This document shows positions 9,530-11,177 of a DNA stretch of 11,358 nucleotides, piece by piece. Both the position numbers and the translations under genes were made by a program. This DNA is from Escherichia coli (lineage in GTDB: Bacteria; Pseudomonadota; Gammaproteobacteria; Enterobacterales; Enterobacteriaceae). The notes under the pieces are model-generated. The model was not told the origin of the DNA. It made no database searches and saw nothing but the letters and a program-made list of their open reading frames with translations. Location: assembly GCF_003334355.1 (NCBI RefSeq), contig NZ_QOWP01000054.1, one strand, 5' to 3'. Each line of letters starts with the position of its first letter. Within the stretch, counting starts at the first letter, position 1.

Positions 9530-9545
9530 ATCGTTGTTGAGGCAC

Positions 9546-9573
9546 ATCTTAACGGCGAAAAATCTTTTGTCAA
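9546..9573 (-). promoter_or_regulatory. Probable sigma70 promoter of the tRNA-Asn at 9454..9529
   Basis: On the minus strand: TTGACA (9573..9568), 16-bp spacer, TAAGAT (9551..9546), discriminator GTGCCTC. Same geometry as the other two tRNA promoters, with a weaker -10. Confidence 0.55.
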
Positions 9574-9689
9574 ACCCGATTTTTAAATTCCCCAACTGTT
9601 TGCCGTTTCTATCAACAGTTTGTTGCATTTGCAGACAATTTGTTGGCGAAAATCTTTGCAGCTTTGCTGATTCTCCCTCATTATTTGAA

Positions 9690-11177
9690 ATGTGGTTTCA
9701 CTTTCTGCAATTAAGGTCGGCTTTGAATATCTCCTCTGCTTTACGCCAGGTTGTTCACGGCACTCGCTGGCACGCTAAACGCAAGAGCTACAAAGTGTTG
9801 TTCTGGCGCGAGATAACCCCGCTTGCTGTTCCTATCTTCATGGAGAATGCCTGTGTCCTGTTGATGGGGGTTCTGAGCACTTTTCTGGTCAGCTGGCTGG
9901 GAAAAGATGCGATGGCCGGCGTGGGATTGGCGGACAGCTTCAATATGGTCATTATGGCTTTTTTTGCTGCTATCGATCTTGGTACTACTGTCGTTGTGGC
10001 ATTTAGTCTCGGTAAGCGGGATCGACGACGAGCGAGGGTGGCGACGCGGCAGTCATTGGTGATCATGACGTTGTTTGCCGTACTGTTGGCAACGCTTATT
10101 CATCATTTTGGCGAACAAATTATTGATTTCGTCGCGGGTGATGCCACGACAGAAGTTAAAGCACTGGCGTTGACTTATCTGGAGCTGACGGTACTCAGTT
10201 ATCCAGCAGCTGCCATCACTCTTATTGGTAGCGGGGCACTTCGTGGTGCAGGGAATACGAAAATACCGCTATTGATTAACGGTAGCCTGAATATTCTTAA
10301 TATTATTATTAGCGGCATATTGATTTACGGCCTTTTCTCCTGGCCGGGACTGGGATTTGTCGGGGCAGGGCTGGGTTTAACCATTTCTCGTTATATTGGC
10401 GCAGTTGCAATTTTGTGGGTGCTGGCGATTGGTTTTAATCCTGCGCTAAGGATTTCGTTAAAGAGCTATTTTAAACCGCTGAATTTTAGCATTATCTGGG
10501 AAGTCATGGGGATTGGTATTCCCGCGAGTGTCGAATCAGTGTTATTTACCAGTGGTCGGTTATTAACCCAAATGTTCGTTGCCGGGATGGGGACCAGTGT
10601 TATTGCCGGAAATTTTATCGCGTTTTCAATTGCGGCTCTTATCAACTTACCCGGAAGTGCGCTCGGCTCTGCTTCTACGATCATTACAGGCCGAAGGTTG
10701 GGGGTAGGGCAGATAGCGCAAGCAGAGATTCAGTTGCGGCATGTGTTCTGGCTTTCCACTCTTGGATTAACGGCCATCGCCTGGCTAACGGCTCCCTTTG
10801 CCGGGGTTATGGCATCGTTTTACACCCAGGATCCACAGGTTAAACATGTCGTTGTGATTCTGATTTGGCTAAATGCTTTATTTATGCCTATTTGGTCCGC
10901 CTCATGGGTGCTACCCGCTGGATTTAAGGGGGCTCGTGACGCCCGTTACGCTATGTGGGTTTCTATGTTGAGCATGTGGGGTTGCCGGGTTGTCGTCGGT
11001 TATGTGCTGGGCATCATGCTTGGCTGGGGTGTGGTTGGTGTCTGGATGGGAATGTTTGCCGACTGGGCTGTGCGGGCCGTGCTGTTTTACTGGCGAATGG
11101 TTACTGGACGTTGGCTATGGAAATACCCTCGATCCGAGCCGCAAAAGTGTGAGAAAAAGCCAGTTGTGTCGGAATAA
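9690..11177 (+). CDS. yeeO: MATE-family efflux transporter YeeO (reported FMN/FAD/dipeptide exporter)
   Basis: Polytopic membrane protein with MATE-like features. The longest ORF (9534, 547 aa) would start inside the promoter and flank of the antisense tRNA-Asn. ATG 9690 gives 495 aa; a TTG at 9723 has the better Shine-Dalgarno (AAGG, 6-nt spacer). The start is uncertain; stop TAA at 11175..11177. Confidence 0.85.
   Translation: MWFHFLQLRSALNISSALRQVVHGTRWHAKRKSYKVLFWREITPLAVPIFMENACVLLMGVLSTFLVSWLGKDAMAGVGLADSFNMVIMAFFAAIDLGTTVVVAFSLGKRDRRRARVATRQSLVIMTLFAVLLATLIHHFGEQIIDFVAGDATTEVKALALTYLELTVLSYPAAAITLIGSGALRGAGNTKIPLLINGSLNILNIIISGILIYGLFSWPGLGFVGAGLGLTISRYIGAVAILWVLAIGFNPALRISLKSYFKPLNFSIIWEVMGIGIPASVESVLFTSGRLLTQMFVAGMGTSVIAGNFIAFSIAALINLPGSALGSASTIITGRRLGVGQIAQAEIQLRHVFWLSTLGLTAIAWLTAPFAGVMASFYTQDPQVKHVVVILIWLNALFMPIWSASWVLPAGFKGARDARYAMWVSMLSMWGCRVVVGYVLGIMLGWGVVGVWMGMFADWAVRAVLFYWRMVTGRWLWKYPRSEPQKCEKKPVVSE

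Follow-up and report, generated by a model that had tools for sequence, protein, structure and literature searches.

The window, an 11,358-nucleotide stretch of Escherichia coli DNA, carries the gene order cobUST-ldtA-asnV-nac-cbl-asnU-yeeO-asnW, and over the stretch upstream of yeeO in question is 100% identical to the DNA of K-12 MG1655. The gap between the start of the longest yeeO ORF and the 5' end of the divergent tRNA-Asn gene amounts to only 4 nt (9530-9533), and two further potential start codons, ATG 9690 and TTG 9723, lie downstream in the same frame. The three corresponding products (547, 495 and 484 aa) are all in public annotation use: the K-12 RefSeq record (NC_000913.3, b1985) gives YeeO as 547 aa, the NCBI pipeline (PGAP) placed the start at ATG 9690 in 5/5 other E. 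coli genomes checked, and the equivalent of TTG 9723 is the annotated start in E. albertii (484 aa) and in one E. coli variant cluster (P0003). An earlier note on the same DNA had pointed out that the 547-aa frame begins at 9534 beside the tRNA gene, that it spans the antisense -10 and -35 elements, and that its N-terminus is rich in Cys and Phe: all of the coordinates hold, and residues 1-52 include five Cys and six Phe. The relevant features are collected in Table 1.

Table 1. Features of the asnU-yeeO region, in window coordinates.
Feature	Position	Strand	Details
tRNA-Asn(GTT) gene asnU	9454..9529	-	detected with ARAGORN; named asnU in the K-12 annotation
Longest yeeO ORF	9534..11177	+	547 aa, TTG start
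Very probably spurious N-terminal extension	9534..9722	+	63 codons; putative divergent intergenic regulatory DNA; open in 12/75 loci
asnU sigma-70 promoter	9546..9573	-	TTGACA 9573-9568, 16-nt spacer, TAAGAT 9551-9546; 10/12 consensus matches
Predicted yeeO sigma-70 promoter	9656..9684	+	TTGCAG 9656-9661, 17-nt spacer, CATTAT 9679-9684
Predicted KdgR/PlaR (IclR-family) operator	9683..9703	.	ATTTGAAATGTGGTTTCACTT; overlaps the yeeO -10 and the predicted transcript start
ATG taken as start by PGAP	9690..9692	+	495 aa; in frame and open in 32/75 loci
Shine-Dalgarno motif TAAGG	9712..9716	+	6 nt 5' of TTG 9723
yeeO CDS as proposed	9723..11177	+	TTG start, 484 aa plus stop; MATE-family FMN/FAD exporter

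Scanning a single genome from each species yielded 80 loci encoding relatives of YeeO, of which 74 had a tRNA-to-gene interval that could be aligned to the window; together with the window itself these provided the 75 sequences from Enterobacteriaceae on which the following comparisons are based. A tRNA-Asn gene was found at the same place in nearly all of the loci compared. One assembly, titled Chryseobacterium sp. 18061 (L045), contained an enterobacterial asnU-yeeO locus with an upstream region nearly identical to that of Citrobacter sp. 18056 (L057) from the same project, and is probably mislabelled or contaminated. Alignment columns conserved to at least 95% whatever the reading frame comprised the asnU -10 and -35 elements, AAAAT-CTTTGCAG, TCAT(C/T)ATTTGAAATG..GTTTCA, and TAAGGTC...TTTGAAC.

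With a G+C content of 38%, as compared with 50% for the gene and 40-42% for neighbouring intergenic DNA, the extension 9534-9722 remained free of stops over its 63 codons in 11% of simulations conducted with a first-order Markov model of the region. An open frame of this length is thus statistically unremarkable, its chance probability of about 0.11 indicating no more than chance. The full extension was open in 12/75 species-level loci (five Escherichia, six Citrobacter, and Klebsiella pneumoniae), and broken by a frameshift or a stop in 63/75. Mean pairwise diversity at codon positions 1/2/3 was flat both in 9576-9653 (0.44/0.41/0.45) and in 9690-9722 (0.27/0.24/0.27), became three-periodic in codons 65-75 directly 3' of 9723 (0.35/0.18/0.44), and was 0.13/0.10/0.42 and then 0.10/0.07/0.46 further into the gene. 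The alignment indels all lay at or before 9708, those of 1 and 2 nt being encountered upstream of TTG 9723 only. Assessed as coding sequence over the 75 loci, 9534-9722 neither kept its frame open nor displayed a third-position excess. The possibility that the extension encodes a separate small protein was also considered and rejected, there being no periodicity in this frame and stops in the other two forward frames.

The same interval carries conserved regulatory DNA. The asnU promoter, located within the first 14 codons of the 547-aa ORF, retained its -35, 16-nt spacer and -10 in 73/75 loci, with the hexamers and spacing expected of a sigma-70 promoter. Each of the three tRNA-Asn genes in the window has a promoter (7140-7168, minus strand; 9546-9573, minus strand; 11231-11259, plus strand) with a perfect TTGACA -35, and in each some 16-18 nt separate the end of the -10 from the mature 5' end, though the flanks differ. 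The plus strand also contains, at 9531-9558, a terminator-like hairpin with a T-run after it, which overlaps the asnU -10 and discriminator; its stem is weak, 4 of the 12 pairs being G-C.

Reading in the opposite direction, the predicted yeeO promoter consists of hexamers that are weak matches to the consensus and were unreported by a generic promoter scan. The TTGCAG element was nevertheless present in 73/75 loci, followed by a 17-nt spacer in 72 of these 73, with the -10 being either CATCAT or CATTAT. Judged from promoter spacing only, transcription of yeeO would be initiated at around 9690-9692. No yeeO transcript-start data were contained in the portions available of the Cappable-seq, in-vitro run-off ROSE and dRNA-seq supplements, and the gene is probably repressed in laboratory media.

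The predicted operator ATTTGAAATGTGGTTTCACTT matched ATNTGAAAYNNNRTTTCANTT, a degenerate pattern that we derived from the published PlaR box (PMC6958661), with 0 mismatches; it was the sole such site in the window, where 0.06 would be expected by chance. Its TGAAA-N5-TTTCA core was conserved in around 70 of the 75 loci whatever the reading frame. The PlaR study reports a high gSELEX peak "between yeeO and asnU" (PMC6958661). Since the yeeO-asnU interval of the K-12 annotation is only 4 bp, this peak must fall in the supposed coding extension. In the literature yeeO is also listed as a predicted KdgR target, on the basis of comparative genomics. An RNA hairpin or structured leader was tried as an alternative role for the dyad (9686-9700) and set aside, the fold being unremarkable (z = 0.89) and the left arm lying no further downstream than the predicted transcript start; the dyad is better explained as a DNA operator. 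In two loci only, Pseudescherichia vulneris (L069) and Escherichia sp. ESNIH1 (L076), a 12-nt CT-rich insertion, CTCTCTCGCACT, separates the operator from the ribosome-binding site and results in a longer leader.

By these lines of sequence evidence, we are very confident that the part of the extension between 9534 and 9689 would be non-coding. The earlier note had likewise doubted the reality of this 52-residue stretch, an opinion borne out by the broken frames, the lack of periodicity, and the conserved promoter and operator DNA within it.

The alignment of orthologue N-termini that the earlier note had proposed as a check was conducted on the same 75 loci, and the codon equivalent to TTG 9723 proved to be universal: TTG in 74 and GTG in one, in frame in every case. 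The Shine-Dalgarno motif pairs with the 3' end of 16S rRNA at -5.9 kcal/mol, and its 6-nt spacing was maintained throughout, with AAGG (9713-9716 in the window, as previously remarked) conserved, the exceptions being Siccibacter (GGAG) and a few other loci (CAGG or CGGG). In Siccibacter both elements were altered (GGAG plus GTG) and the arrangement was kept. TTG 9723 consequently has the form of a canonical Shine-Dalgarno-led start, for which a purine-rich site conserved in orthologues is expected 5-9 nt before the start codon. The fold of the predicted leader (9690-9770) was unremarkable (z = 0.89), and the ribosome-binding site was unpaired in the centroid structure.

Positions 2-469 of 470 in the curated family profile NF007562 aligned with residues 67-534 of the 547-aa ORF, and the score of 908.3 bits, relative to a curated cut-off of 465, identifies the product as an EmmdR/YeeO MATE transporter. 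Profile position 2 corresponds to residue 67, three residues past TTG 9723, so that the profile starts at residue 66-67. At the other end of the protein, the tail following the WREITPL anchor extends to 448-450 residues in L006 (E. whittamii), L007, L022 and L044 (Salmonella), as compared with 458 in E. coli, and the last ten or so residues of YeeO appear poorly constrained.

The earlier note had left the choice of start between ATG 9690 and TTG 9723; the comparison goes further. TTG 9723 is favoured over ATG 9690 because it is universal and accompanied by a ribosome-binding site, the equivalent of the ATG failing in 43/75 loci, and on this comparative evidence it would be the most likely start of yeeO, giving a protein of 484 aa; we regard this as a probable assignment. 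Within E. coli itself the choice between the two codons is one that we infer from the sequences, with TTG clearly favoured. The available portions of the supplements to TetRP, the Ribo-RET preprint and TRAINSPOTTER contained no initiation-site or N-terminal data for yeeO. In a study of K. pneumoniae MATE transporters, yeeO was cloned from the ATG equivalent behind an artificial ribosome-binding site and conferred no phenotype; this clone was set aside as start-site evidence, such a construct being unable to discriminate between starts.

Were the K-12 annotation right, translation would be initiated at TTG 9534 (or 9537) and YeeO would possess an N-terminal Cys/Phe-rich domain of 63 residues, encoded on the strand opposite the asnU promoter. 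The 547-aa form is the curated annotation in NC_000913.3, and a Shine-Dalgarno-like GAGGA (9525-9529; -6.0 kcal/mol), missed by the earlier note, is present 4 nt 5' of TTG 9534. However, this GAGGA is the antisense of the 5' end of the tRNA-Asn gene, and is hence fixed by the tRNA rather than by translation; it probably misleads gene callers, and the same signal would come with any gene placed head-to-head to a tRNA-Asn gene. In 4/5 of the other E. coli genomes sampled, and in the other Escherichia species, CTG takes the place of TTG 9534 itself (T9534C); these loci (L083-L086, L004-L008) keep TTG 9537. One of the sampled E. coli genomes, P27_L1_05.20 (L083), has a 1-nt deletion in the TTT run equivalent to 9663-9665, which may reflect genuine variation or a fault in the assembly. 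The deletion throws the 547-aa frame out of register and leaves the predicted yeeO promoter with a spacer of 16 instead of 17 nt. A consensus scan detected no plus-strand promoter inside the tRNA gene for a transcript containing 9534, and such a promoter would need to be located there, just 3' of the cbl/asnU terminator (9424-9440). Also in favour of the long form, Escherichia, six Citrobacter species and K. pneumoniae have an open frame of similar sequence, for which 547-aa proteins have been annotated. The earlier note had stated that conservation of the extension across orthologues would refute its reading, and in Citrobacter and Klebsiella, where a long frame exists, this at first looks to be the case. 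However, substitutions between E. coli and Citrobacter numbered 12/10/14 at codon positions 1/2/3 of the extension, whereas the first core codons gave 6/2/17. Since the former are spread evenly over the codon positions, the likeness of the Citrobacter homologues is, at the level of sequence comparison, that of conserved DNA in a chance-open frame as opposed to conserved protein, and the 547-aa homologues were rejected as support for a real extension. Taken with the frame broken in most loci, its length falling within chance expectation, and the region carrying yeeO's own conserved promoter and operator, these observations render initiation at TTG 9534 or 9537 highly improbable.

A more credible competitor, though still an unlikely one, is that YeeO of E. 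coli starts at ATG 9690, with TTG 9723 serving as an internal Leu codon or a minor second start. ATG is the strongest of the start codons, stronger than TTG. The choice made by PGAP in every one of the E. coli genomes checked favours this codon, and an equivalent triplet was present in 71/75 loci and absent from four. It was in frame and open in 32, including all sampled E. coli, Citrobacter, and some Salmonella, Enterobacter and Kluyvera, but in frame and followed by a stop in 11 and out of frame in 28. Among the failures are two close relatives of E. coli: in E. albertii (L008) the ATG is out of frame, and in the Escherichia locus L007, where the ORF otherwise equals that of E. whittamii in length, a CAA to TAA change at 9708 intervenes between ATG and TTG. 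Moreover, as the earlier note had recognised, the ATG is not accompanied by a Shine-Dalgarno motif (+1.3 kcal/mol for pairing with the 3' end of 16S rRNA); the 33 nt that it would add (9690-9722) exhibit no codon periodicity and contain indels; and the 11 residues concerned fall outside the NF007562 profile. The triplet occupies the middle of the conserved KdgR/PlaR box, no further downstream than the predicted transcript start, and was kept even when out of frame or before an immediate stop because it forms the centre of the operator dyad (TGAAAT|G): it is probably conserved as a part of the operator and not as a start codon.

ATG 9690 would become a likelier start in E. coli if transcription began at exactly A9690, since the ATG could then act without a leader; that AUG 9690 is the transcript 5' end and is translated in this leaderless manner seems a rather slim prospect. 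If true, it would generate an N-terminal isoform longer by 11 residues in E. coli, Citrobacter and some Salmonella, a 7-codon upstream ORF in around one third of genera, and a bare start-stop in others, and translation from the TTG could then be coupled to, or gated by, a ribosome terminating on the ribosome-binding site. Where the ATG is out of frame, as in Enterobacter (L025, L031, L032, L035 and L077) and some 20 other loci, it opens a 7-codon ORF (MEFQLSR*, MKFQLSL* or MEFQLSH*), the TAA stop of which constitutes the first three bases of the TAAGG ribosome-binding site. A bare ATG-stop (ATG-TAG or ATG-TAA) was recorded in 10 loci; the eleventh locus with a stop, L007, reads MWFHFL* first.

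With initiation at TTG 9723 as the preferred reading, 9530-9722 may be envisaged as a non-coding, divergent intergenic control region. Leftwards it would provide the asnU promoter; rightwards, it would comprise in succession the yeeO promoter, the KdgR/PlaR operator, a leader and TTG 9723. A KdgR or PlaR repressor bound at 9683-9703 would cover the yeeO -10 and the transcript start, from which position repression may be inferred. Transcription would yield a leader of about 30 nt containing TAAGG, from which TTG 9723 would be translated to give the 484-aa YeeO. The 547-aa frame would then be a longest-ORF artefact, arising from a chance lack of in-frame stops combined with a tRNA-antisense GAGGA that mimics a ribosome-binding site.

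The yeeO start is an ordinary annotation error, and the regulatory elements concerned have been published before; what results is not new biology but a clean, checkable correction of a reference annotation. It has practical consequences, in that resources built on the 547-aa K-12 YeeO (clones, structure predictions, topology models) incorporate around 63 residues that the cell very probably does not synthesize, the PGAP form of 495 aa probably has 11 surplus residues, and the coding label on the region hides both the yeeO promoter and the predicted KdgR/PlaR operator. That operator, as predicted, would tie the flavin exporter YeeO to the hexuronate/plant-sugar regulon.

The case resembles other instances of longest-ORF start misannotation in that AT-rich intergenic DNA without stops is read from a weak TTG situated far 5' of the first conserved residue, and in that pipelines disagree. 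It differs from the usual example in that the yeeO extension crosses a divergent tRNA promoter and runs up to the tRNA gene itself, the antisense of which supplies a fortuitous Shine-Dalgarno-like motif. The candidate operator is likewise comparable with the KdgR/PlaR operators of kdgK, kdgT, kduID, eda and yiaK, members of the hexuronate/pectin-catabolism regulon, sharing with them the 21-bp dyad AT-TGAAA-N5-TTTCA-TT placed over a promoter. Assignment of yeeO to that regulon stems from the predicted site, its listing as a predicted KdgR target, and gSELEX, the PlaR paper, in the sections available, reporting yeeO as a binding target only. With respect to the EmmdR/YeeO MATE family (NF007562), the yeeO core from residue 67 matches the equivalog, and it is the annotated N-terminus alone that is at issue.
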